A stretch of 64,000 bases of DNA. Origin: Protoeuglena noctilucae (Eukaryota). The notes under the pieces are model-generated. The model was not told the origin of the DNA. It searched no databases and saw nothing but the letters and a program-made list of their open reading frames with translations. The stretch is taken from contig OY253675.1 of the NCBI GenBank assembly GCA_958009085.1, positions 62,001 through 126,000 on the forward strand, given 5' to 3'. This document shows, piece by piece, positions 38,401-62,300 of the stretch (within the stretch, counting starts at the first letter, position 1; every line of letters begins with the position of its first letter). The position numbers and the translations under genes are program-made.

Positions 38401-41400
38401 GGAAGGAGGCAACGAGGGCGACGGGTGGAGTCGAGAAGCGTTCAAACGCCCCGGCGGAGTCGGGTGGCGGGTCAGATTCAAATTCCAATTCAAATTCGGA
38501 TAGATCGGATACGGGCATCGGTGGGTCGGAGGGCGGGCGCGGGAGTGCGGTGGAGTGGCGGGAGCGGCAGGGGGTGGTGGATGTTAGGGAGTATGTGCAT
38601 AATCGCTATCAGGGTGCCATGAATCCACTCAAGACGGAGATGGGGAAGGAGGGTGCGGGGAGTGGGCATGAGTCTGCGGGGGGTGGGGAGGGGGGGAGAG
38701 GGGAGCGAGGGGGAGAGCGGGGGGGTGTCGTCGGATGCTGAGATCGTGGGGAGGGGAGGTGAGAAGATGAGATGGTATCGTTGATTGATAGATTAATTAG
38801 TTAAACACGGTGATTGGGGCTTGTGTTGACGGACTCTGGGGTGTGGAGCGTGCGAACATGTTGCCACGGCTCACCGGTACCCGCGCACCCTCACCACTCA
38901 CCCTCACCCTCACCTCACCCACACTCTCACTGCCACTCTCACCCTCACCCTCACCCCCCCCCCCGCAGCCGACGCCCCACCACCCCACCCCCCGAGTCAG
39001 TGCCAGAATTCACAGCCACTGAGATGGCCACGATGCGTGCCTTGCCACCCAAGAAGCCCTCTCTTCGATTCTTGGCGATGCGCTCCAGCCTTATGATGGG
39101 GGGGGCGGGAGACGAGGGCGGGGAGGGGGGCAAGGGGGCGGAGAGGGGGAGGGAGAGGGAGGGGAAGGTGAGGGGTGGGGGTGGTTGGGAGGGTGGCGGT
39201 GGGGGTGGTGATATGGGTGGTATTGGGGGTGGCAGTGGGGGTGGTAGTGAGGGCGACATTAAGGGTAGCAGTGAGGCTAGCATCAATGACAATAACAGCA
39301 CTCATCATTCCCCGCCACATCTCATCTCCTCGTCCCCGCAGCCCCCCGCAACCACCCCCTTCGGCATGATCCGCGTCGATGACTCTGGCGGCGATCTGAG
39401 TCAGCGGGGGGGGTGGAAGGCAGACGCGGCGGCGCACCGGGACAGCATGTTTGGCGGCGGGGCGGGCGGGGGGCGGGGGCGGGAGCGGGGCGGCGAGGGC
39501 AGGCGGCAGGGTGGGGGAGACGGGGAGCAGGCGAGGGAAGCCGGCGCGGGGCGGGAGAGGGACCGCGATCGCGAGGGAGGCGCGGACAGGGGTAAAGATA
39601 AGGATATTGATGAGGATAGGGAGAGAGAGAGGGAGCGCCGGGACCGGAGGGAGCGCCGGGCGTCGCGAGTGAGGGACATGTCGAGCGATTCCGGGTCCGA
39701 GGAGCGGAGCGTGGCGCGGAGGGGCGAAAAGCGGGACCGAAAAGACGGCAAGAGCGTTAATGTCATGGACGGGCGCGGCGGGAAGGCGGAGGGCGGGCGC
39801 GGCGGGGAGGAGAGCGACGGCGACCGGCGACCGCGCTCGCTCGCGCGGCCGGCGCCGCGACGACCGCGGAGCCGGCGATAATGAGCGACGAAATGACTTC
39901 GATCGCGATCGCGACCGGGCGCTGGGCCGCGGGCGCGCGCGGTCGGCGCGGGTGCGTGCGGAACGTCCGGCGGGGGCGATGGGCGATTTGACGGAGGAGG
40001 CTGCGGAAGAGGACCGACTCCGCGACGAGACGCGATCGTTCCAGGATCCGACGGAGCTGGAAGGGGACGCGGAGGCGGCGGACGGGTCGCCGCGGACGGG
40101 GGTGGGCGGGGCGGTGGTGCCGAGGACCTATGCTGACCAGGTGGGGGGTCACTGCGAGGGGATACATGGGGTGGTTGATTCCATGAATGGGTTGGTTGGG
40201 TTTGGTATGTTTGATTGGGATTTGTTGATACTGGGATGGCTGGAGAGGGGCTGTACAGCGATTTAGCAAGGCGGAGGGAGGCAACGTGCTGTGATGGTTG
40301 AGTGATGGGAAGTTGGCCCTTGGCTCGTGTCGAGTGCTTGGATCAATGCCCGATATCATCACAACACATGTAAATGACAATTAACAGATTAACATATTGT
40401 TAACATATCCGCATCCACCTCCCCCCCAGCTCGACCGCACCGGCGTGGGCGGGGCGATGCGCGACTGGATGCAGGCGACGGCGGGCGCTGCCAGCCAGGC
40501 AGCGGAGAAGGCCCGCCGCGCGCAGCAGGAATTGATGAAAGACAAATTCGCGGCCGTCGTGAAGGCCGCGCTGCGAGCGAGGCGCGAGGCCGCCAAAGAG
40601 GAGGCGGACGGGGCGCGCGGGGGTGGAGGGGGTCAAGCGGGGTTCTATTCGCGCGCTGCGGTGATCGAGATGGCGTCGCGGCACGCGCAGCAGATGCGGC
40701 AGCTGCAGGCGGCGTACGAGGATCGGATCACCGCCATGGAGGACAGGTGACGATTTGCGGTGGGGTTTCTGCTGAGGGTACAATTAGTAGAGGAGGGGGG
40801 TGATGGGCAGTGCATGGATCGCATCACCGCCATGGAGGACAGGTGAGGGGGGGAGGGGGGTGGTGTGTTGTTGTTTGTTGTTGTCACTGTTGTAGGAAGG
40901 GTAGGGGAGTGAGTGGATGGGATCACCGCCATGGAGGACAGGCGAGGGGCGATGAGGGCGGGTGTTAGGGGTGTAAGGTGCAATCAAAGTGAGGTAGTGA
41001 AACTGATCGAGTCACCGACATGGAGGACAGGCGAGGGGGGGTCGGTGTCTTGGGGTGTTGGGGAGTGGTGGTGCGAGTGGTCGAGTGAGCTAGTGGCATA
41101 GGAAAGTAGAAGATAGTGTAGAGGGGTAGCGATGGGGAGGGCAGCGAATGGATCGAATCGCAGCGATGGTGGTTAGACGAGGGCGCACATGGCGCCTCCA
41201 TCCCACACCCTCCCTGTCACCCACCCACACGCTCACTAGCAAACCCTGCCCATGGCTCACCATCCTCATTCTCCCAATAACCGTCCACCCCTGTCTTTCA
41301 AATCCTACCCAACCATTCCCCAACCACTCCCCCCCTGCAACGCAGGCACAAGGAGCGCCTGACCCGCGCCCACCCCACCCGACCCCGTGGCCCCGCCCCC

Positions 41401-44400
41401 GCCGCCACCCGCACCCGCGCCGGCGACGAAAAAGGGGACGCGGATCGAGACGTGGTGACGCGGGGGTTGCTGGATTTGATGGGCGCGCAGATGCGGGGGG
41501 TGGCGGACCCGCACCTGACGGAGCAGGCGACACGCCAGACCGAGGACTTTTTGGAATCCGCGGGGCTGTCGAAGGACATGGTGGCCGCCGCGAGTCGGAG
41601 GTCGATGCGGTCCGCGCTGGGGATCGAAGCGGGGACCTCCCGTCGGTCAGGGATGGCGAGCGCAAGCCGGGTGAGGGGGGGCGGTATTATGGGGGGGGAG
41701 GGTAGGGGGTGGGGTGGTGTTTGCTGTGTGGGGAGGTTGGCGGTTGATGCTGGTGGGGGAGAGAAGTGCAACGGAGAGAAAATAACATTACTGCACAGCT
41801 GTAGCTATCTGTCACAGCTAGTACCACCAACAACCCCGCTCTCGCTCTACCTACCACCCCACTCTCACCTTCACCCCTCCCTCTCTCTCTCCCCCCTCTC
41901 AGCTCTCGGCCCACAGTGCCTCCCTCCCTCTCTCTCACTCTCACTCTCATCCCCCACTCACCCTCACCCCTCTCTCTCCCTCTCCCCACAGCTCTCGGCC
42001 CACAGCGCCTCCCGCCCCGCGTCCCGCGCCGACCTCACCGCCCCCTCCACCTCCCAACGCCCATCGCGCAACGAAGCGCCGCCACCCCCGCCCTTCGCCA
42101 GTGCAGCCGCGAGGCTAGCGGCAGAGAGCGGGGCGCTGACCGATTGGGGAGAAGGGGCGGGTGCTGGGGGTGTTGCACTCGCAGCTGCGAGGGGGGGGTC
42201 GCCAGTACCGGTGCCAGTACCGGTGCCAGTGTGGGCGTCGGAATCGGGTGTCGCGGGCCGCCAGTCGCCGTCTGCGGGGCTGGCGACGGCGGCGGCGGCG
42301 GGGCAGCTGTTTGCGGGTGGGGAGGCGGGCCGCGCGGCCCTGCTGGCGAGGCCGGGGTCTGCGGTGGGGGAGGCGAGGGGGGCAGGGGCGGGGGCGGCGT
42401 TCGCGAGGCCCATGGTGAGGGGTGGGGGGTGATGGTGTGGTGTGTGGGTGATAGTGTGGTGAGGGTAATTGCGTGGGATGGTTGTGATGATGGGTGAAGA
42501 GTGGGTGTAGAGGGGATGTAGGTGGTTAGAGTGGATAGTTGGGTGTGGATAGGGTGGGAGAGGTTGGGTGGGGTGGCAGTGTGGGTAGAGTTTGTGGTGG
42601 GGGGCCATGTGACAACAAGTGGAGATGAAGACAATAGGATGGCAGTTGTGTGGTCATTATCACATGCATCTCTGCCACGCCTTGCCACCCCACTCCACCG
42701 CTCACACCACCCCCACTACCCCCCCACCCACTCCCCCCATCACCCATCCACCCTAACCCTCCTTACCCCTACCCCCCACTCCCCCCCCGCAGTCTGCCGC
42801 ACCCACCCCCTCCCGCCGCTCCCGCCTTGACCCCTCAGCGACCGCCACCGCCCCCACCGCCACGCCCGCCCCCTTCGCCCCTCCTCCCTTCCTCGACCCA
42901 CTGCCAGAATCCGCGTCCCTCGCCAGCCTGGGTCGAACGGGCGACCTCCGGCGCGCTGGGCGGGACGCCTGGGCCGAGGAGGGCTCGGAGGCACGCGGCG
43001 GGGGTTCGAACCCTGGCGCCGGCGGCGCCTTTTTGGGTGCGGCGGCGGGGATCGAAGGGCGGCTGTCGGAAGTGGTGCCGGAGGCATCGGAAGGGTCATT
43101 GGCGGATGCAATGGAAAGAGCAGAGGGGGCGAGGGGGGTAGGTGGGCGCGGGGCGGGGGCGGCGGTGGCGGTGGTGGAGGGCGGGGGTGGGGGACGGGCG
43201 GCGGCGTTGGCGGAGCCGCGACAGCGCGGACAGAAGGCGCATCAAGCACGGCCCGTGTCGGGTGAGTTGGAGTGAAGTAGTGGGGGGTAATAGATGGGAC
43301 GTGGATGTGGGTATGGATTCCGTATGGGTGATTGTGATGGATTAGACACTCTTGTGACACTGCCACCTCTCTCCGCACCCCCCTCCACTTCACCCCAACC
43401 CCGCAGCCATCGTAGCACAACGCTCCACCCCCACCCCACCCCCTCACTCCACCCACCCCTACCCCACCCCCGCAGCCATCGTAACACAACGCTCCGTCCC
43501 CGACCCCATCCGCCGCCATTTGTCATTCACTCCCTCACCCCCACCACACCCGCAGCCATTCTGGCACAGCGCTCCACCCCCACCTCGGTTCCCGACCCCA
43601 TCCGCCGCCATTCGCCATTCACTCCCTCATCCCCGTTACCCCCGCAGCCATTCTGGCACATCGCTCCACCCCCACTTCGGTTCCTGACCCCATCCGCCGC
43701 CATTTGTCGTCCGCCCGCGCCGACCCCGCCCACCGCCGGGGATCACGGCCCGCCACAGGGTCGACGGTTCAAATCTCGCGGCCGGCGTCGGGGGCCGTGG
43801 GGGCCATCGCGGGAGCGGCAGGTGAGGGGGGGGGGGGCTGTGAGGGGGAGATGAGATGAGTGGGAAGTGGATGAGTGGCGTTGTTATGTGAGTTGTTCAT
43901 AATCGTTGTTTATGGATTCAATTACTATCATAACAGACACTCAATTGTCTCCTGCAATGACTCACCATCACCCACTTATCCCCCTCCCCCGCAGCCCCCC
44001 ACCCCGCCCGTGCACGGAGCGCCACCACACAACACCCAAGCAACAACCAAAACCAACCCACCCTCGCCATCACCGCCACCGCCACAGCCACCGCCGCTCA
44101 CCCTACCAGCACTGTTAGTAATGCGGAGAGGGGCAGGCAGCAGGAGGGCTTTGCGGGTGCAGCGGTGTTGCGCAAAGGGGGGAGACCGGCGACGGCGAGG
44201 GTGGGGGCGGTGGGGGGTGCGACGGATAAGGACAGAGAAAGGGATAAGGATGGATCGCTGTTCGTGGCGCCGAGGCCGTCGCTGATGGGGGTGTCCAACC
44301 GGAGCCTGCTGATGGTGAGGGGGGGTGGGGGTGGGGGTAGCATTGGGGTAGCGATGGCTGTTGTTGTATGCTCTCGCTTACCCTTTCTCAACTCTCACCT

Positions 44401-48100: not shown

Positions 48101-51100
48101 CTCACCTGACCGCGGCGTCGTCTGCAATCGTCAACAGCACAACACAACAGTGCACCCATCCCACCACACCCCATCCATATCCCACTCCCCACCATCTCAC
48201 CTGCCCGCGGCGTCGTCGGCGAATCGGCAATACAAGACAGTCCCACCCCATCCAACCCCACCCCATCTCACACCCATCCAATTCCCATAACATCCCAAAT
48301 CGCAATCCGTCACCTGACCGCCGCATCGTCTGCGAATTGGAACTCGAGCGGCCGCCGGTGGCTCAGCACCCCATCCCCCGGGGCTTCGTGCCACTCGGTC
48401 TGCTGTTCGTCTCCCCCCGACACCATCATGCTTATTTGGCGGGGGGGCACGCGGGTCTGGGGGCCCGAGCGGATGCTCACGCGATACCTGAGAGGGAGGG
48501 GGGGGGGGGTTGAGAGTAGCAATGGGGGTATGGGTGAGGTGAGAGATGGGGTGCGGGTGGGGGTGGCAGTGGGGTGGCAGTGGGGGGGGTGGCAGTGGGA
48601 GTGGGGGTGGCAGTGGGGGTGGCAGTGGGGGTGGCTTAGCAGTGGGGAAGCGGGGGCAATCACGCGCTGTCCCCGATCCCGATATGGAGTTCCAACAAAC
48701 ACACACACCCATTCATTGCAATATCAACCATATACAAACACAACCACTCCCCAAAGCCCCTCACCCGTGCTCTGCCGCCCCCTCTGCCCTCCGCACCAGC
48801 CGCACCGCCCCCCCCCTCCCCTGCCCCGCCACCGCCGGCGCCAATCCACCCGCTGCCGGGCCGAAGAAGTACTGGGAGCCGTCTGAGTATATCAACACCA
48901 TCTTGACGCACTGCCAGGTTAACCCCACGCCGCCCTGCGATGTGACGAGGGGGGTGTTGGGGTGGGGGGTTGTTGGGATGGGTGTTGGGGTGTGGGGTGG
49001 GGGCAGAGTAGCATGGAGTAGCATACAATACAATAGTACTATACTGTATGCTACTTATATATTCCATACACTATATGCATTAACAGTGGATAATTACAAC
49101 ATGATTATGACATGACACCCCATCTCCCCTAACAACCCCATCACCCACCCCCCTCTCATCTCCCTTCCCCCCTCCCCCCCCTTCATCTCACCTGCCCCGC
49201 CCCGCCCGTGTCCATTTGAATCTCCACGAACTGAGGGTCGCCGACGTCGTGGTAGGGGATTTCGAATTCGTCCCTCGCCCCCCGCTGGAAGGGGAGCGTG
49301 CCCGGTTTCGCGATTAAGGTGCTGTAGTCGGTGCGATTCGAACTCCCGACCACGGAGATGGCCACCGAGTTGGGCGGCGCCGAGGCGTCTGGGCGAGTGC
49401 CGGTGGTGGCCAACACGCGCGTGACTTGCGGTTTCCTGGCGCCAGTGTCGGCGGCGGGGGGTCCGTCCCGGGACTCCATGCGGCGCTCCAGGCTGTGGTC
49501 GGGGGAGAGCCAGTCCTGGGGGAGAGATGGGGGGTTTTATAATGGTAATTGTGATAATAGTGATAATACTATGATATACGATGATGGCTAGTGAGTGTGC
49601 ATCCATGCGGCGCTCCAGGCTGTGGTCGGGGGAGAGCCAGTCCTGTCATGTCCTGTGATTGCGAGATTGCTAAAGCATACACACACCCATCATAACCAAA
49701 TTACATTACCAAATAACACCAACTCATCGACCATCCCACCCCTCACCCGTAGATGGAACCACCTCGTGTGTTTCTTTGTCCTATCGGTCCCCTCGTGTGT
49801 GGCCTCTATATGCGATAAGTGCCACGTGTCGTCCACCTTGCCATCGGGGCTGAGCAGCGCAGTGCCCGGCTGAAGGCGAACCGACATGGCCTGCGAGTGA
49901 GGGTGGGGGTTGGGGAGGGGGTGATGATTATATAATTTGTTTGTTTATTATTACTATTATTGATCAATACTCTTAGGTAAAGAGTCCCTGCTCCGACCCG
50001 GTCGCATATCTTACCATATCCACTGTCCATATCTACCATAACTATCAATATCCACCATTACATATGAATACAATTACCCAACCACTCAAACTCGCCTTCA
50101 TCCTCCCCACGTCCCTCCCCTGCACCCCCAGGAACGCCTGCTCCGACCCGGTGGCGAATCCCCGGAACCCCGGCCTGGTTAACTCCAGCCATCCCGTGTC
50201 GCCGTTTTCACCATAAACATTCAAGAACACGGGGGAGTTGGTGCCGGCGCCGGGGATGTTGGTCGTGAAGACCTGAGGGGGTGAACAGTATTACTTATTG
50301 CTTGCATAACAAAACCTGATACTGATGGTAGCAAGCGGCACTGATAGTAAGGCTGCCTTAAGTTATTGCAAGACCATACCATGTCAAAAGGTACAGCTCG
50401 CCCGGCATGTGCAAGCACATACACCCATCACCCCACTCCCATCCCACTCCCCATCAATAAAACTCGCCTTGAACGTGTACGCGCACACCCCCTTCCTGGC
50501 CGCAGGGTCCCCCCCCTCCGTCAACACCCTCTCGCTCCTCACATCGCCCGCCCCCTGCCCCAGCCAACCATCGCCATGCTCCGGCACGTCGGCCCAGAAC
50601 ACAAAGGGACGCGGGAGGCCGTTCGCGGTCGCTGTCACGCGCCGCAGTCGCCAGGAGTGGTTGCCGGGGCCCGGGCGCAGCCCCACAGTGAGGTGGGTGG
50701 GGGTGCCGATGGGGGAGGGGGAGATGACGGTGACGGAGCTGCGGGAGTGGGTGGGTGTTTATTATATATGATTATTACTAGTACATATATATTAGATGCG
50801 TATGTCAACTGATAGCGTGGGTGAGGTGGGTGGGGGTGCCGATGGGGGCGGGGGAGGTGACGGTGACGGAGCTGCAAAGGGAGTGGTGATGAAAGGGAGT
50901 GGTGATGGGTGGTTGGTGGTTAAGGAGTGGTATTCATCATCATCAGTGGTATTAATATTTATTAATTATCAGTTCCTACTCCTTCCCTCTCACGGCGACG
51001 CCCCCCCGCGAACCCCTGCACATCCGCATCATCAATATCACCCGTATTGATATATATCATTATATTATGTATAACTATACAGTACATTTACCAACCCGCG

Positions 51101-54100
51101 ACTCACCGCGCCGTCCCCCCCGCGAACCCCTGCGCGTGTGCCACGTCCTGCGCCCCCGTCTGCCCCAGCGTGCCCTTTAAGTTGACATATGCCTGGCTGG
51201 TGGTGCCGGAGAGGGTCTCGAATTCCAAGGTATATTCGGTGGGCTTGGAGCCGGCCTGGAGGCGGGCCTGGGTGTCAGGGGAGGGGGATGGTGGAGTTAG
51301 ATATAGTTATGGTTATCATGATTATTACATTCCAGCGTGTACTCGGTGGGCTTGGAGGCGATAGTAATAATCACAACCCACAACTACCACCCACCCATTC
51401 CCCCTCACCTCTCTTGGCTTCTCCCCCCCCAGCCACCCCTTGCAGTGGAAGTACCACTCACTCATGATACTACAAACATCCATAATACTAGTAATAGTAA
51501 CTTGATAATCATAACCCCCTCACCTCCCTGGGCTTCTCCCCTCCCAGCCACCCCTTGCAGTGGAAGTACCACTCCTTATCCCCGCTCGCCACCCTTATCC
51601 AATCCAGCTGCCACGCGTCCGCGCCCGCCCCCCCCTCCAGCCCCACCACGCACTCCCGCAGGTCGCCCAGGGGGGGGAGCTCCCTGCGATTAGAAAGAGA
51701 TGGGTTGGGAAAATGTTATTATAATAATATGCGTATTGTTTATTACATGCTCTGCAGCTGAACTGCTATCCATTGCCTGTCCAAGTTGTCTTGCCGCCCC
51801 CACCCCATCGTGCTATTTACTTACTGCACTATTAATTGTCAGTGCTATTCATCATAGTAATAGTAACCCCATCCTCAACTACTCGCCAACCACCCCACCG
51901 CACCTGTCGAAGTTATCGATTTGTCCCGGCCGGAACGGGGGCTGCCTATCGCTGTCGATCAGCTCCACTCTCCCCTCACCTCGTGCAATAATGGTATTAC
52001 TCAGTATTTACTAGTAATACTAGTAATACTATTACTGCAAGATACCACTCCCACCGTACCTGTCGAAGTTATCCACTTGTCCCGGCCGGAATGGTGGTTT
52101 TTTATCGCTCTCGATCAGCTCCACCCTGCCGCTGCTCCCCTGCGCCCCCGTCAGCGCCACCACCACCGTCGCCACCGTCCCCGCCTCCCGGTCATCGCCC
52201 GTCTTCACGCTGATGCGGTACCTGGGTGGGGATTATGAATGGGGATTGTGGGTGAATATGGGTTTATGGGACTATAAACGACGATCAGTGGTCGTCGCCC
52301 GTCTTCACGCTGATGCGGTATCTGAATGGGGGGGATTATGGGAATAGATATGGGATTATAAACGAGGATGAATGATTGTGGATGTTTGAAAGAGATAATG
52401 ATGAACGGTGCATTGTTCATCCCAGCGACCGTGTTGGCACAAACAGATTATACACATTCAGTACATCCACATATAGTTATAGCTTATACATCACAACCAC
52501 CCCCTCGCCTCTGCTTCTGCGCTTTGGGCGCCTCCTTGGCCCTCCCCATCTCCAGCGTGCGCCTCTCCCTGCCCATCACCGCCCTGCCAGTAAACCACGC
52601 CTCGTCAATGATTTGGTTATTCCGGCTCTGCCGCACCCGCACGCACTCGGGCACCCAGTCGGGCGACTCGCCCTTGCCGTCGATGTCCAGGATGACCTGG
52701 GAAGGGAGGTGGGGGGAGTGAGACTTATTAAGTAAAGTAACAGTTCAACTATCATCATTAATAACTACAATTATCAGAGATATATCGCAATAGCTACTTA
52801 CCTGGTAAATTCGCAAACTCGAATTTACTCATAATTCACTGCTATATAGCAAATGCTGTCAGTAAAACACATCGCAACTGACAACCCATCGCATCGGACA
52901 TCGCATCGCTCCCCCCACCCTTTCCATCCAATCTCGCCTTGTTCATCTTGCCCACTGGCTTGGACGACATTTTGAAGAAATCCTTCTGCGCCCTCCGGAA
53001 GGGGACGGACGCGTCTTGCGGGTGCAGCTCCATCTGACCGGTGCGGCCACCCTCGCCCCTGGGGGGAGAAGAGGGAATGATGATAAGAGAATGATGATCG
53101 TGGTTTGGTGCACTGATGATCCCCGATGGATCACGCAACATCACCCCGACATGACTGGTACACCACCACCACCCGCACAAGACAACCCACTACACCGCCT
53201 TTACCACAAGCACTACCAGCCCACATTACAACCACCATCTCCCAACACTCACTCCACAGTTAACGTGACCGCGCTGGTCGTGGTGGGCCGCCTCTCGTCC
53301 GCCGTGTGCACCTCCACCTCGTAATCCGCCGACTCGTCCGCCTGACGCGGGCGGTCTGACGCCAGTAAACGCTTCGTCAGTCCGTCGGCGTCGGACAGCC
53401 ACGCGTGGCAGGGGAAGTAGTAGGTGTGGTTCTGGACCTGAAAGAAGAGAGAGGGAAGTGGAAAGGGTTTTATATTTAATAATAAATAGGAGATGATACG
53501 GTGCGTGTGGCTCTGGGCCTGAAGGGACAGATGCGAAAAGAGGTGCTCATTCTGAACTTAAGCAAGCCCAAGCGCATCCCTATTAACACCCACTCGCCTT
53601 CACCACCACCTCCTGCAGCTTCCAGGGCTTGCGGCTCCCCGCCGGCAGCAGCTGCACCGTCGCCGCCTCGAGCGGACCCACGGGGGGGCCGTCCCTCACA
53701 AACTCGTCCCTCCCGCCCCGCTCGAATAATTTCCCGGAACTGTCCTCTAATTGGAAAGGGCCCACCGAGTCGCGGCCGGAGTGCAGCGTCAGCTTGACCT
53801 CCCCATCCGTGGCCGCGCCTGCGGTTGATGGATAATGTTTATGCAGTTGATGATATCCACCGTGGTCAGTCGATGGATAATGGTGGTCAGTCGATTGATA
53901 GTAATTGGGTGAAAGTGATTATCGGTTTTATTGGTAGGATTGATTGATGGATAGATGGGGAGTGTCGATGAACTGACAGTAGGTAGCAACTAGTCCTTTA
54001 CGGAAACCACCGTCAATAGATAGTAACTAAATAACAACTAAATAGCTAAGCATACACATAACAAGCGCCTCACCCCTCTCGTCCGCGGTGAGGATGCTGA

Positions 54101-57100
54101 TGAAGTACTGCACGACCTTGGGCCTCGTATCGATCGGACCGGCATGCACCTCCAGCGTTCTCTCTAGCGTGTTATCCGATCGGCGCAGCCACTGCCCGCA
54201 CAGGAACTGGTACACCCGCCCCGTCGATATGTCTTTCACGGCCACTCGCTCCAGCAGCCAGTCCGGGCTCGTGCCCAGGCCATTGTGGCCGATCACCAGG
54301 CGGCTGCGATTGGATTGGGTGAGAGGGAGAGGGAGCGTGATGGTGGTGACATGGATGTCACATTATGACTGTTATGTTGTTATTATGATGCTTTTATAAT
54401 GATGTCAGAAAAAAGTACTAATAAAATTATTACAATGTTTACATTATAGTTGTATATTTACAACTATAATGAATTATTGCCAACACATCCATCCCATCCA
54501 CTCACGTGAGTTCCCCCACGTCAGGGACGTTGTCGAGTCGGAATCGTGCTGTGTTGCCCCTCCGGAAGTCCCCCTCATGGCAGGGCAGAGAGAGGGTGCC
54601 CGTGGCCCCGCCTGTCCCAATGAACTTCACGTACACGTCCGCGCTCGTGCCTGCGAGATATGGTGATAGTACTAGTATTGATAGTAGTATTGATAGTTAT
54701 GGTAGTAGTGATGGTGATATTAATAGTAATAGTAATAAAATAGAAATAAAATAGAAATAGAAATAGAAACAGAAACAGAAATCAAACAACACTCGCCTGC
54801 CCCCTGCGCGTCCCGGGTGACGATGTGTATCTCGAAAGCCTTGGTCTGCCGGTTGCCCTCTTGCGTGACCGGGATGCGCACCGTCGTCCCCGCCAGCACC
54901 GCAGAGGCAGGGGCGTCAAAGAAGTAACGGTCGCCCGAACGCAGGTCTGGGATGATAGGATATGAAGGGGAGAGAATAGTTGCAAGAGCAGTTCATGTCA
55001 AGCATTTATTGTATTTCTATTTGTAATAGTTAAATCGATGAAATTATATACAAACTGTTACGAGTTGCATGGCAGTCGAACACTGCCATAACCCTATAAC
55101 ATGCCAATAACTTCAATTTTGTAACAATAACAAGTACATTGCCACACACCCCAGACCCTCTCACCGGTGATGCGTCCGTGGTCAATGCCCCACCCGCGCT
55201 CCCCCCGCCCCCGCGGCAGCTTGATGGTCAGGAACTGCAGCCGGCCCAGCGCCCCCGCCTCGGTCAGCAGATGCTGCGAGCTGCTGTTTCTGGCGAATCC
55301 CCCGGGGGGGGGCTGCACGCGGTGGTGGGTGCCGGGGCCCCGGTCGCCCTCCAGCTGCGGGCGGGGCGATTTGAATGGGGGTGGGGATTTGAAAATTTGA
55401 ACGAAGATTTGGAAATAGCAGTGAGTGGGATTGTGGACGAGAGTGGCTGGAGTGATGGGCAACCCTTGGTGGTCTCTCTCATGAGCGCGACGGTCGGCAG
55501 TGAGAGGCGTTTATCATAAAATAAGTAACATAATGATGAAAGTATTAATTATAACACCCATCAGTATATTATCCCACCTGCACGACGACCTCCGCGTCCC
55601 ACTGCGACCCCTGGGCGTCCTTGGTCTTGAACGCCACCTCGTACTGATAAGACTCGAGCTCGGTGGCCTGGGAATCTCGAATGAGATGTAAACTATTGTG
55701 AGCAATAAAGTCATTATTGATAGTTGCATCTGCAATATCTACAGTTGTCCTTATAATATGATGTAAATCTAATTTCAATTACTATAAAATTTACATACTC
55801 ACGCATAATTATACTGATAATTATCATACATTATCACCACTTCGCCTCCCTTCATGGCCCTCCCCCCTCTCCCCTCGCCTGTGCGTAGAGGTCTGCGACG
55901 GTGGTGTGGTCGGCCCCCCTCGTCTTGCTGAGCCACCTCTGGCATAGAAACGTCCACTCCCGCCCCGTCGCCATGTGCAGCACGCGCACCGACTCCAGGT
56001 ACCAGTCGGGGTGGCGGCCGGAGCAGTCGTGCCACACACGCAGGATCTGGGGGTGGGGTGGGGTGGGTGGTCAGGGATGAGGGTGAGTGGTGGGATGGTG
56101 AGGGTGAGGGTGAGAGGTGATAGATGGGGAGTGGTGCTGGCACATCAACCTTTCATCATCCCATCACCGTCTCGCCTGTATGTCTCCGATGTCTTTGGGC
56201 ACCTCCACTCGGAAAGTGTCTGCCATGCCACGCTGGAAGGGGGGCTGGCCACTGGGGGTGGAGAGGGTTGAAAGTTGGTGGTGTTACACAGTAGCGATAC
56301 ACAACACGAAAATCATATGCCTCTGAGTTGGGCATAGCAATCGACCACATCACTCCTCAACCCTCAATCGCTTATCTCGCTCATTCCTCTCACCTGACGG
56401 GGCTCGCGAGCGCGATGGACCCCAACACGCACATGCAACAGCAACCCAGTCAGCATTACTACCCATCTCCAGTGCCACTCTTCTAACCTGACCGGGCTGG
56501 CCAGGGCGATGGACCCCGACGTCCCCTCGTCCCCCACCATCTCCGCATAGACGCGGGACGAGGTGCCCGCCTCCGCCTGCTGGCCCGTGCGCACAGTGAA
56601 CTCGTATACTAATGCGCCGCGGCTGCGGTGAACATGACGAATAGCTATAAGTATAGTAATAAGTATATGAGTAACTATCGACAGCCGATCGTACTGGCTA
56701 TGCAGCTTTGTCTCGCACCCACCATACCAACAACAACAAACATCGCACATCGCACAGCGACGCACCCCACCACCCCACCCACCCCCCTCACCTCCCGCCC
56801 CCTCCCCCCACCCCACCCCTCCTCGGCGACCACCTCATTCCACTCGCGCTTGCGTGATGCGGCAGGGGCGGCAGCGTGAGGCTGAGGTCCAACCCACCGT
56901 GCGCGTCAGCCTGCCTGACCGCGTGCAGGGCGCAGTCGCGCCAGGCGTCGCTCAGGCGGCGCATCCACAGGCGGGCGTCCGCTGCGAGTGAGGGAATGTG
57001 GAATGAGTTAGTGACAAAAGGGGTGAGGTAGAGGATGATGCATGGCGCATGCACAGGCGAGCGTCTGCTGCGACTGAATAGAGCTTAAATAGACATGGGG

Positions 57101-58833
57101 CCACCAGCGACGGTCGACAGTCTGCAGCTGACCACTCACCTGGTGTCTCATCGTCAAGTCAATCCACCCCATCAATCACGTTCCCTCAGCCGTATCGCTG
57201 ACCCCTCACCCGGCGTCTCGGCCGCCAGGAAGAAGGTGTGCACCATCACATGGACATGATAATCGTGAACCACACCCCATGAATACCACAATCACACCAA
57301 CTCACCCGGCGTCTCTGCCGCCAGGGAGAACGTGTGCACCACCACGTCAGTACAACAATCCAATTATTACTGATAGTATCCACTCACTACTATCAGCATC
57401 AGCATCACGAACACAAACACTCACCCGGCGTCTCTGCCGCCAGGAAGAACGTGTGCACCCCGCACGTGACGGCAAACACCCTCCCCGCCAGCCTGGCGTG
57501 CTGCACCCCTCCCTCCTCGTCATCACCCCCAATCCGCAAGTCAGGGACGGGACCGCGGATGCGACTGGTCAGCTGGCGAGGGTCCACCGCCTCAATGGGC
57601 TCGCGGGGGGGGGCCGGGCCGCGGGCACGGGGCGGGGGGGTGGCGGAGGTGCAGGCGGGGGCTGCGGGTGGGGTGGGGTGGGTGGGGATGGGTGGGGTGA
57701 GCGCGGGGCGGGGGGGTGGCGGAGGTGCGGGCGGGGGCTGCGGGGGTGGGGTGGGTGGGGTGAGAGTGGGGTGACAGGGTCAGGTGGGTTGCGTTCGATG
57801 GTTGCGTGGGTGGTGAAGAAAGGGTGTGGGTGGTTGCGGCTGCGACACTGCAACAAGGCCGATGCGATTCCCTGCATAGCGCACTACGCTCGACTGTATC
57901 AGCTATGACTCGTGACTGCACCAACTATGATCATTCGTGACTTTGCCCGCTTGCCTGGTTCGTAGTCTCCGTCGTCGAGGGGCAGCCGCGGTGGCGATGC
58001 GCGGGTGGCGGAGCGGGGGCGGCGGGGGAGGTTGGCGGGCATGTGACGCACGGGGAACTGCGGGCACGGATGGGGGTAGATGAGAGATGAGAGAGTGTGT
58101 GATGCTGGCAGTGCATGTGACGCACGGGGAACTGCGGACACAGATGGGGATGGATTGGAGATGAGGGAGAGTTAACATGGCATGTGACGCATTGCGGACC
58201 GTTGAGGATAAGAGAGACAGATGGATATAAGAGTGACAGGGGTTGGCATGGCATGTGTCGCAGCGTGGACAGGTGTTGATTACTCCACCATGCATTGGCC
58301 GCATCACAGCGCATGGTAAGATAGATAGCGACTTGCCTGGTCAAGGGGCAGGTACTTCAGCCCGGCCCTGTCCTTGCTCTGGTTGCTGCGGTAGTAGCAG
58401 AGGCGGTCGGGCAGGAGCACGAACTGCGGGAGAGGACGAGGACGAGTCAGCGGATGGCTGTGTTGATGACGACGGGCCATCATCGCTGCTGCGTTGGGCT
58501 GGACACTCGCACTCACGTAGCGACGCTTCCAGCTATGGCCGGGGGCGTCGTTGGTGAGCTTGTACAGCCATCTGCGGTCGCAAAAAGCGAGTTTATTCAC
58601 GAAACCACAACAATACGTCGAAACGACGTCGCCGGCGGGTCAGGCATCCGCCCACACCCTCACCCCTGGTGCAAAACCCGCTGCGACACCTCCGTGGTGT
58701 TCTGCATGGACAGCCAGGTGTCATCCTGGTGCGATGCGGACATCCCGCGCAGTCGAGGGGACCGGCCGGGGCGTCCCGGGTCTGCGGGACGCAACGGGAG
58801 ACCACGCATCTCGCGGGACGCGCTCCGACTCAT
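45122..58833 (-). CDS. N-terminal PH domain + ~12 tandem PLAT/LH2 domains (LOXHD1-like), >30 exons
   Basis: PH: 'VLHQG|WLYKLTN...SWKRRY|FVLLPDRLCYYRS...VHTFFLAAETP|ADARLWMRRL'. PLAT repeats: 'YEFTVRTG...AGTSSRVYAEMVGDEG...FQRGMADTF...HDCSGRHPDWYLESVRV...WTFLCQRWL', 'IGHNGLGTSPDWLLERVAV...YQFLCGQWL', 'GAGTNSPVFLNVYGENGDTG', 'FQRGARDEFEI', 'FKAGCVDEFEF...LGRLKQLRLGH'. Last exon ends ...FAKKGRK*. Confidence 0.85.
48560..48635 (+). repeat. intronic minisatellite (GGGGTGGCAGTG)n
   Basis: Five or more ~12-bp units; same motif as 16317-16392. Confidence 0.7.
54737..54781 (+). repeat. intronic microsatellite (AAATAG/AAACAG)n
   Basis: aaatagaaataaaatagaaatagaaatagaaacagaaacagaaa. Confidence 0.8.
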
Positions 58834-59370: not shown

Positions 59371-62300
59371 AGATCAAGCAGGTATATCCCAGGGCCAGAG
59401 AGCAACGAATCTCCATCTGCCCGCGGTTTATGCATAACGACGTCTCAATGCTCCAGAACTCTGGGCGCACGCTCACTGACCAGGAGCAGCAGAGCATCGA
59501 TACAACCATCACCGCGGAAGAGGTTCTTGCGGCCATCCACTCCTTTAAGCCTGACAGCGCCACGGTGCCCATGGGCCTGCCGCCTGGCCTGTACCAGCGC
59601 TACGCCCACCTCTACGCCCCACTCCTCACTCTCCTTCTCAACACCATCCAGCAGACGGGTTTTATGCCCGCCTGCTTCCTTGACAGCACCGTCACCCTCA
59701 TTCCTAAGCTCCCCAAAGCCACAGACTGCAAGCCCTCGGACTTCCGGCCCATCTCAGTCAATGATGTGGTCTACCGCGTCCTCGCCAAAGTCCTTAACAC
59801 CCGCCTGCGCCCCGTCCTCCAACGCATCATCCCCCTCAGCCAGCAGGCCTTCATCAAGGGCCGATGCATCTCACGATGCGTGTACCTCACCCGGGCCATC
59901 CTGGAACTCCTCAATCAATCTGACAAGGGCTGCTTTATCATCTTCAATGACTTTGCCAAGGCCTATGACACGGTCGACCGGCCCTTCCTCAGACGCATCC
60001 TCGAGACCCTGCGCTTTGGGGAAACGTTCTGCACCTGGTTCGACATCATGCACAACCCCTCAGCCACCTACCAGCTCAAGCTGGGTCACGGCCTAAGCCG
60101 TGGTTACAATGTCTCCACGGGCGTCCGCCAAGGCTGCCCGCTTGCTCCCTCCCTCTTCATCCTCGTGGCGCTCGTGCTCCATGAGCTGGTCGCCTCCAAC
60201 CCCGACATCAAGGGCCTCCCGGTACCGGGACCTAACAAGCCCTCCCTCTACGCTTTCCGCACCGATAAGCGGCTCGCCCAGGAGAGCCTCATCAGCCCGT
60301 TTGCAGACGACACCGAGTTCGTGCAGGCCACGGTGCAGTCCATGCACAACTTGTTCCAGGCCTTGGATACCTTCTACCGGGCAACTGGTCTGCGTTCTTA
60401 TTCCGTTAAGACGGGTGTCCTCCCAGCTGGAAAGTGGAACACGGACCCAGCAGCGCTCCACCTGCACCTCCATGCTGCCCAGGCCCAGGGCCTCGACACG
60501 CTAAACTATGACCATGCCCAGCAGCGCTGGAAACTTGATGGCTACTGGATTACCCCGCCTGGGGGAGAACCTGCAGCGCCAGTGAAATACCTGGGCCCGC
60601 TCATGGGGCCCGCTGGGGTCGTCCCGACTGACTACTCCTCCTTCGTGGCGAGCATCTATACACAGCTCCTTCGCCTCAGACAGCACGATATCCCACTGCT
60701 TCATCGGTGGAAGATTGTCAAGACGTTCGTGCTGTCACGCCTCATCTATGCGACCAAGCACTGCCCCATGGACTTCTCGCCAGGGAAGCCGGGTGCCTTG
60801 CTCCTACGCTACATTCAGCGCTACGTGCTCACGGAATCCCCCAAAACGCAACGGCTCCCGCCTGAGATTGACAGGAACGAGCTGTACCACCCCGTCAGCC
60901 GGGGCGGCCTTCAGGCCCAGCACGTGCCCTTTCACCAAGCGGCCCTCCGCTTTAAGATGATCCAGCTCCACGCGTCGGGCGCAGACCCCCTCTTCTCCAA
61001 TGCCATCCACCAGCACCTCGTCAGGTCCCTCAAGTACAAAGCGACGGTCAAATGGCGGGCGGGGTGATGGCCAACGTTATGAGACGACGCTGTCCATCCC
61101 GGTGGGGCCCCACATCTGTGCTCTGACAGCCAAAGACTGGGCGGAGCTCACGCCCACCCCCCTCACTCGTGACCTCTTCAGCGCCACCTCGATGTTCCCC
61201 GCCACCCAGATGCTTCCTCCACCACAGCCATACGCCAACCCACCCACCCTGAATGACCTGTGGGTCCACCTGACTCCAATGCTCCGAGCCCCGCTTCTCT
61301 CCAACCCACACAACCCTCTCTCCTTCCCTGCCAACTTCGTGCACAGCCGCTCTACTGACCCCACCCACCAAAGGCTGCTCCTTGATGCCACGGCTAGAGA
61401 TATCTGGGCCGCCATCATCCCAATCCTCGAACCTCTCCAACGGGCCTTCCCGCTGGTCTCGTCGCTCATCATCCCTCGTGCCTACAACGGCCGTCTGGGA
61501 CTCAAAGACCCTGACGATGTACTGACGACCCTCATGGTCCCTGCCTTGGGCTCCTATATGGCTAGGCAGATCCGTCTTGACTTCGTTTCTGCCCTCTCCG
61601 CCCACCTCAGCATCAACAGCCCTGGCCGCCCTGGGCTCCCCGCCAACGCCTGGAATGACGTCCGTGGACCCACAGTCCTGTCTCCAAGCTCTGTCCGAGT
61701 CTGTTGGAGGACAGCTCTCCCCACCTGGCATGTGCTGCGACTGCCGCCCTGGCACGCCCTCAGGCTAACCCCGCTCACCTGGCCGCCACCTCCACGGCCT
61801 GGCTCGCTGTCACCGACCGGTTGCCTACCTATTCTGACCTCCAGGGCAAGCCCTGCCCCCTCTGCCTCGAACGCCACGGCACGTCCCTCCACGACCTCGC
61901 AGAATCCTGCCGCACGGCCCAGGTCGTCTGGCACTCCGTCTTCCAATCCCTGCCTCCTCTTTCCTGGCAGTACCTCAACCGCTGCCTTGCTCATCCCTCC
62001 GTGGGGCCGTCCGGCCTCTGCCCTGACCGTGGCACTCCCACTGCGCTCCTCCTCCGTTTTGGCGCTACCTCTGCCGGCTCCGACCTCCTCCGGTCCCCCG
62101 CTTGGCGTCTTCTGTGGTCTGAGACTCTCCATGCCATCATCACCGCGCGCCGCTACTGGCGCACGGGCCATCCACTCCCAGGTGCACCCCCCATGCTACT
62201 CCTTGACCCTCCCGATGCTCTAGCGTTGGCAAGGGCCGCTCGCATCGTCTCCTACGCCAGCCACAGGATCTCGTCCGCCATGGCCTGCCACCACCGCCTC

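Follow-up and report, generated by a model that had tools for sequence, protein, structure and literature searches.

Exon-Edge Repeats in Described Systems

Intron 7 of the human F7 gene (IVS7) holds a 37-bp minisatellite with silent pseudo-donors (PMC1557585). In Caenorhabditis elegans helq-1 mutants, tandem duplications arise by aborted synthesis-dependent strand annealing (SDSA) together with polymerase theta end joining, and the lower limit for single-strand annealing is put at ~50 bp (PMC8654963). One-sided invasion is described for plants (Puchta 1998, as cited in PMC9369344). In Chlamydomonas, templated repair also yields local duplications (PMC8604939); lines of this alga acquire de novo duplications of far greater length (medians 0.9 and 12.9 kb), frequently in association with a long interspersed nuclear element (PMC9977147). 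Tandem genomic duplication and internal gene duplication have been reviewed as routes of intron gain (PMC3443670). Here we describe exon-edge repeats, which we call echoes, in a 64,000-nt window of the green microalga Protoeuglena noctilucae (contig OY253675.1; G000:C8:62001-126000 of a 26.3-Mb, 27-contig assembly). In each, the end or start of an exon recurs within the adjacent intron, and the case on which we focus lies at positions 56394 to 56423 of the window, on the minus strand, in a gene encoding several PLAT/LH2 domains. The initial annotation of this DNA described that single case without a mechanism; it is one of many.

For intron gain by internal gene duplication, the review refers to Gao and Lynch (2009, as cited in PMC3443670). 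The echoes resemble this process in that a local gene duplication is made harmless by splicing, but an echo lies inside an existing intron and lengthens it (PMC3443670). As in F7 IVS7 (PMC1557585), the repeat straddles the boundary between exon and intron and thereby adds a second donor, and the most upstream donor is used though a downstream site is as good or better, for which the evidence here is one RNA contig. Unlike F7, where a single head-to-tail minisatellite carries identical pseudo-sites, the alga has many unrelated echoes of one to three copies on both donor and acceptor sides, with spacers that match poorly and differences that are codon-structured. A literature search with incomplete subscription coverage returned no account of exon-edge echoes that occur genome-wide and show a silent-site bias, nor of intron lengthening by capture of allelic exon edges.

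The Echo at 56394 to 56423

The host gene and all of its features given below lie on the minus strand. Pfam matches fall on 6 of the 10 exons tested, and the translation can be read as beginning with a PH-like domain. The echoed exon (56488 to 56622) would encode the first half of a PLAT domain in the gene model. Its own Pfam match is weak (PLAT, E = 0.0036, under the cut-off), the exon two downstream matches clearly (E = 1e-8), and splicing from the first donor leaves the PLAT frame open; the PLAT matches and this open frame indicate that the frame of the echoed exon is right.

The last 30 nt of the exon (56517 to 56488; a G, the codons for GSIALASPV, and AG) recur 94 nt further on, at 56423 to 56394, with 26 of 30 positions identical. 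All four differences are C<->G exchanges at the third positions of Ala, Leu, Ala, and Pro codons, which are fourfold degenerate, and each copy is followed by a donor: GTTAG after the exon end (56483 to 56487, matrix score 6.1) and GTGAG after the echo (56389 to 56393, matrix score 10.1). The initial annotation had recorded the repeat, its four silent exchanges, and the second donor exactly, and had placed the exon's donor correctly at 56487; the echo donor, which it put at 56395, is actually at 56393. Between the copies is a 64-nt spacer (56424 to 56487) with the composition of an intron start, whose alignment to the intron after the echo (score 12) falls inside the null range. The whole intron (56252 to 56487, 236 nt) comprises the 94-nt echo unit and a 142-nt remainder, and the next exon (56176 to 56251, GQPPFQRG...) is delimited by RNA joints 56046-56176 and 56251-56488 and by the gene model.

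The repeat lies far beyond what chance would give, as none of 2,614 shuffled exon/intron pairings produced such a match. No paralogue emerged as the source of the echo; elsewhere in the genome, the closest matches are 38 to 50% identical in protein. The 4-of-4 silent pattern has a probability of 0.012 by site count, 0.018 when base-matched, and 0.06 when the exon, too, is allowed silent drift. Since this echo was picked from many, and two of 100 cleaned echoes (see below) show 4-of-4 silent differences, the pattern is suggestive singly and strong only in aggregate. The earlier judgment that it is hard to obtain by neutral decay is borne out across the genome (z = 9.2) but not, at these P values, by this case alone.

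The Echo Is Real DNA and Is Removed by Splicing

Contigs of four runs were placed on positions 49000 to 58800 of the window, two from DNA (X4 and X6) and two from RNA (X9 and X10). Two haplotypes fused by the assembler or polisher would leave a pattern resembling two alleles side by side, and such a fusion was what the initial annotation had named as grounds for refutation. X4 contig record 14 (depth 105), however, runs unbroken over 54790 to 56755 without a difference, and X6 contig record 21, from another sample (2016), is unbroken over the same span with one difference, at 55113. Contigs from two samples, in place of the spanning reads that had been called for, thus cover both copies, with depth level with the flanks, and exclude fusion here. 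The exon end and the echo share at most 12 identical nt in a row; therefore, no 31-mer graph ambiguity makes the contig path. Over 9.8 kb, the differences listed between X6 and the window are a T>A at 55113 and a 2-nt gap at 51884. Measured on this reference, the intron removed from RNA is exactly 236 nt long, and the 300 nt to either side of every echo are free of N gaps. X4 may itself underlie the assembly, and there are 110 loose ends and 268 contig pieces beyond those listed; nevertheless, an assembly artefact is refuted at 56394 to 56517 and is hardly credible as an account of the echoes in general.

One RNA contig of X9 (depth 4.42) joins 56488 to 56251, skipping 236 nt and removing the echo, so the weaker first donor is used ahead of the stronger echo donor. 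No joint at 56393 occurs among the contigs listed, which drop rare forms; use of that donor would add 94 nt and shift the frame. The junction comparison proposed in the initial annotation thus comes out for the first donor. A second RNA joint (49514-49746) skips an acceptor-side echo and uses the last acceptor, and the echo is therefore removed from RNA in both of the echo introns covered. Run X10 gave no joints on 49000 to 58800. Eight other runs under this species label share almost none of the window's words and count as no evidence. An RNA structure hiding the echo donor was considered and set aside, the fold being unremarkable (z = 0.53). Intron gain by tandem duplication was also rejected, because the RNA joint runs from the first donor to the usual acceptor at 56252 and there is no new intron.

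Selection could instead keep echoes that are sometimes translated, through alternative donors or as mutually exclusive exon halves. Codon-structured differences fit this idea, as do the echo donors, 56 of 58 of which keep GT/GC and 23 of 58 of which score above the first donor, and a 71-nt echo in the same gene has only conservative replacements. But there is no AG before the echo at 56423 to 56394, and a YAG stands near the echo start in 19 of 69 cases against 73 of 207 in the null (counted, like the BLOSUM and intron-similarity tests below, on the echo set before cleaning). Furthermore, 27 of 100 offsets keep the frame, the echo donor at 56393 shifts it, and the RNA contigs, with the limit noted above, skip the echo in both covered introns. 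We consider it very unlikely that selection keeps the echoes for their translation, and mutually exclusive duplicated exons were rejected on the missing acceptor AG and the same YAG counts.

Echoes Across the Genome

Adding 800 kb of genome to the window gave 864 kb, on which we used a coding model and a small trained gene-finder that reproduces the ten gene-like RNA joints on 49000 to 58800, some overlapping its training introns. After 27 of 1,335 predicted introns were dropped for length or acceptor, 115 of the remaining 1,308 contain sequence matching their neighboring exon (98 donor-side and 46 acceptor-side matches), compared with 0 of 2,614 in the null. This proportion overstates the genome rate because the extra stretches were mostly chosen beside echo-rich blocks; in blocks picked blind (660 kb), 42 of 867 introns carry an echo, or about 1 in 20. 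Scaling those 42 introns to 26.3 Mb gives a figure of ~1,500, and this genome probably holds more than a thousand such scars, real and non-coding. Echoes occur almost only in introns longer than 150 nt and are absent from 8 of 18 blocks, and echo-rich bins are intron-dense with lower CpG. They are 15 to 41 nt long (5th to 95th percentile) and mostly lie 40 to 150 nt from the exon, and in the cleaned set of 100, 68 extend precisely to the splice site.

Introns with echoes are longer (median 269 nt, n = 75) than those without (192 nt, n = 653), and the remainder after the last echo has a median of 192.5 nt (n = 50); an echo lengthens its intron by about one unit (~90 nt). Spacers derived from a mobile element or introner were rejected as a source, as 6 of 93 gave distant matches within the 864 kb (3% of the genome), all to short, low-complexity, or splice-site sequence.

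Two intron styles coexist in this genome. Short introns (median 87 to 128 nt, ~65% GC) prevail in most blocks, and long ones (190 to 340 nt, 56 to 59% GC), CpG-poor with a G/T-rich start and a C/A-rich end, form the patches that hold echoes. GC donors are common (GCGAG 66 and GCAAG 12 of 454 first-pass predicted introns in the window and blocks C8, C5, C13, and C3), and four RNA joints fit them. At G000:C8:152001-166000 (L032-L033), GC falls to 0.48 to 0.49 and few introns are predicted.

Differences Between Echo and Exon Are Codon-Structured

Subtracting 23 antisense double calls and 21 echoes with a weak coding score (15 silent and 11 replacement differences) from 144 raw echoes left 100 cleaned echoes in 83 introns. 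Their mismatches fall 39/28/93 by codon position, with 89 silent and 71 replacement differences (pS, 0.148; pN, 0.034; dN/dS, 0.21), against a base-matched neutral expectation of 43.3 silent (z = 9.2). A frame-free check gave the same signal, 34 of 66 distances between successive mismatches being multiples of 3 (P = 0.0017). Third-position GC is equally high in exon copies (823 of 899) and echoes (828 of 899, 92%), whereas echo-bearing introns are 56% GC, and the silent flux is symmetric (26 GC>AT versus 29 AT>GC; P = 0.0002 to 0.0014 against decay). CpG hypermutation behind the silent bias found no support (189 versus 193 CpG). Among 10 families with at least two echoes, 14 of 23 echo-private changes are silent; for the nearest echo, private changes are silent in 9 of 14 cases (P = 0.004 against 0.27). 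By these measures the echoes look formerly coding, but they have no acceptor in front, keep the frame in 27 of 100 cases, and are skipped in RNA; where they lie, they are unable to code.

Past the splice site, similarity ends a median of 6 nt into the intron (69 donor echoes), and for 27 of 60 pairs of intron starts the relatedness exceeds the 95th percentile of the null. The intron starts after the two donors are often related, though far more diverged than the exon parts. Among the 26 cleaned echoes of at least 33 nt, identical ones reach 38 nt, and the three of at least 60 nt carry 6 to 12 differences.

The simplest explanation, and a known one (PMC8654963, PMC1557585), is plain self tandem duplication, by slippage or aborted sister-chromatid repair, after which the echo decays, the exon drifts silently, and slippage quickly alters the low-complexity intron. 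It accounts for splice-site anchoring (by selection), for identical echoes, and for unremarkable BLOSUM scores, and for the single echo at 56394 it leaves P = 0.06. However, it allows at most ~43% silent differences where 56% (89 of 160) are seen; self-duplication with silent exon drift has P = 0.0006, or P = 0.0019 when each intron side contributes a single echo (n = 88). Third-position GC in the echoes is undecayed, the private changes of nearest echoes are predominantly silent, the CpG counts give no effect that could speed exon change, and echoes identical over 33 to 35 nt adjoin clearly diverged intron starts. Neutral decay of plain self-copies as the sole cause is largely refuted across the genome by the z score and P values above, and we regard plain self-duplication as quite unlikely.

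A Proposed Origin as Allele Fragments Left by One-Sided Repair

We propose that each echo is a fragment of a diverged allele, produced when repair of a break used the homologue as template on one side and end joining on the other. Our confidence in this proposal is middling, and is held there because no donor allele was found. No paralogue supplies the echo at 56394, the spacers belong to no mobile family, and the intron starts are often related but diverged; the simplest source would be another allele. We infer this allelic origin, and likewise the repair route and the copy that is foreign. Two diverged haplotypes, brought together by mating or hybridization, would match in exons and hardly in introns. 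At a break near an exon edge, one end could then be extended on the homologue, and the copied strand would gain ~15 to 45 nt of imperfect exon homology, too little to anneal. Because this exon overlap is too short or too mismatched, the extended strand would be end-joined to the other broken end instead. The product would be the exon end, its donor, and the start of one intron, followed by the exon end, donor, and intron of the other allele; acceptor-side echoes would be the mirror image. As both copies would have been coding until the repair event, a silent-site bias is expected. The first donor, or last acceptor, would be used and the echo spliced out, which would let the lineage survive, and selection would keep only products that use the outer splice sites. 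Each event would add one ~90-nt unit to the intron. It is speculation that G-rich intron starts provoke the breaks. Inspected by eye, the junctions share no motif.

As in aborted SDSA or one-sided invasion, one end would be template-extended and the other end-joined, leaving a direct repeat, and the ~50-bp annealing limit lies near the upper size of most echoes (PMC8654963). In the helq-1 case, by contrast, repair mostly draws on the sister chromatid, and copies of ~100 bp to 10 kb are observed in mutants (PMC8654963), whereas in the alga a diverged allele would serve as template and the scars have become fixed at the splice sites of a natural genome. It is possible, although we lean slightly against it, that long introns grow by repeated capture of the exon edges of diverged alleles, so that the genome holds ~1,500 spliced-out fossil allele fragments.

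A break in the exon would make the working copy foreign, and a break in the intron would make the echo foreign; the near absence of exon-private changes (1, versus 14 and 9 in echoes) leans weakly toward the latter. These counts also bear on a two-step route, in which a self tandem duplication across the splice site is followed by allelic gene conversion that overwrites the functional exon end and the beginning of the intron but leaves the echo in place. This route needs the same diverged alleles and no one-sided joining, predicts much of the same silent bias and symmetry of third-position GC, and sits well with the 47 of 144 raw echoes that are identical to the exon and with the relatedness of about half of the intron starts. 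Yet for most echoes the conversion tract would have to stop within ~60 nt. Exon-private changes should also result, of which only the one was seen, and the silent echo-private changes (14 of 23) are left unexplained. We consider this route unlikely.

Several observations weigh against an allelic origin by one-sided repair. A search of 131 candidates for other strains gave no match to the 54-aa PLAT exon, and metagenomes gave one locus (L088), 41% identical and uninformative. The X6 sample is near-identical to the window, with the one substitution and one 2-nt gap listed over 9.8 kb, and allelic divergence of at least 15% at silent sites is therefore unproven for the species. By BLOSUM score, replacement changes are not conservative beyond random expectation (z = 0.9, n = 98). 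The most diverged echo, in a DEAH helicase gene, carries an R and an M found in none of 76 homologues (those matching the helicase motif once, of 80 matches, which are biased to the query), and these two residues look like later decay. The 47 identical echoes are what self-copies would give, and the small blocks C3 (3/5), C17 (3/6), and C18 (5/6) show no silent excess. The imbalance between exon-private and echo-private changes is not predicted by a symmetric three-allele model. Finally, we built the gene models ourselves, and among the cleaned echoes at least one (49475, no differences) is still assigned to the wrong strand.

Other Echoes and Neighboring Features

The window holds many such repeats, 17 of which are listed. 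In the PLAT gene, the exon end at 57459 to 57425 has two donor echoes, at 57340 to 57306 (1 replacement) and 57244 to 57210 (2 silent). The 71-nt donor echo mentioned above (51974 to 51904, of exon end 52130 to 52060) has four codons changed silently and four replaced (E>D, K>R, K>Q, and V>I). An acceptor-side echo at 52320 to 52290 differs from the exon start at 52220 to 52190 by 1 silent change, and the echo at 51357 to 51329 of 51250 to 51222 is again 4/4 silent. The echo removed by RNA joint 49514-49746 through the last acceptor is an identical 44-nt acceptor echo (within 49475 to 49645). On the plus strand, at 40720 to 41041, one exon end has three successive donor echoes at 96, 195, and 284 nt. 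At 43392 to 43704, three to four copies of a ~92-nt unit, with 109 of 121 positions identical between neighbors, resemble a full head-to-tail duplication.

Outside the window, the DEAH helicase exon (L020:1-151, L019; G000:C5 ~519900-520151, minus strand) has a 60-nt echo starting 12 nt after its donor, with 12 differences, 9 of them silent, and a second, shorter echo besides. Proteins P0001, P0003, P0004, P0011, P0030, and P0043, which come from other sources, repeat the same helicase motif at least twice, some with intron-like sequence between; they may reflect assembly errors or duplicated junctions in other eukaryotes. A 564-aa frame on the plus strand (59373 to 61067), immediately upstream of the PLAT gene, has a reverse transcriptase domain (RVT_1, E = 3e-23) and looks like a non-long terminal repeat retroelement. 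The genome has 21 matches to the chlorophyll a/b-binding family, the best of which resembles LHCII of plants and green algae; these matches mark the organism as a green alga.

Implications

Echoes mislead gene prediction, as our trained gene-finder took several for mini-exons, and they resemble assembly errors although they are real. Whatever their origin, they form a natural test bed for splice-site choice, in which 23 of 58 echo donors outscore the first donor and GTTAG is used ahead of GTGAG. If the allelic origin is true, the echoes would represent a specific mutational path, linked to recombination between diverged alleles, by which introns lengthen and turn over. They would then be a readable record of past outcrossing, and both sex and the past allelic diversity of a microalga could be inferred from one genome.
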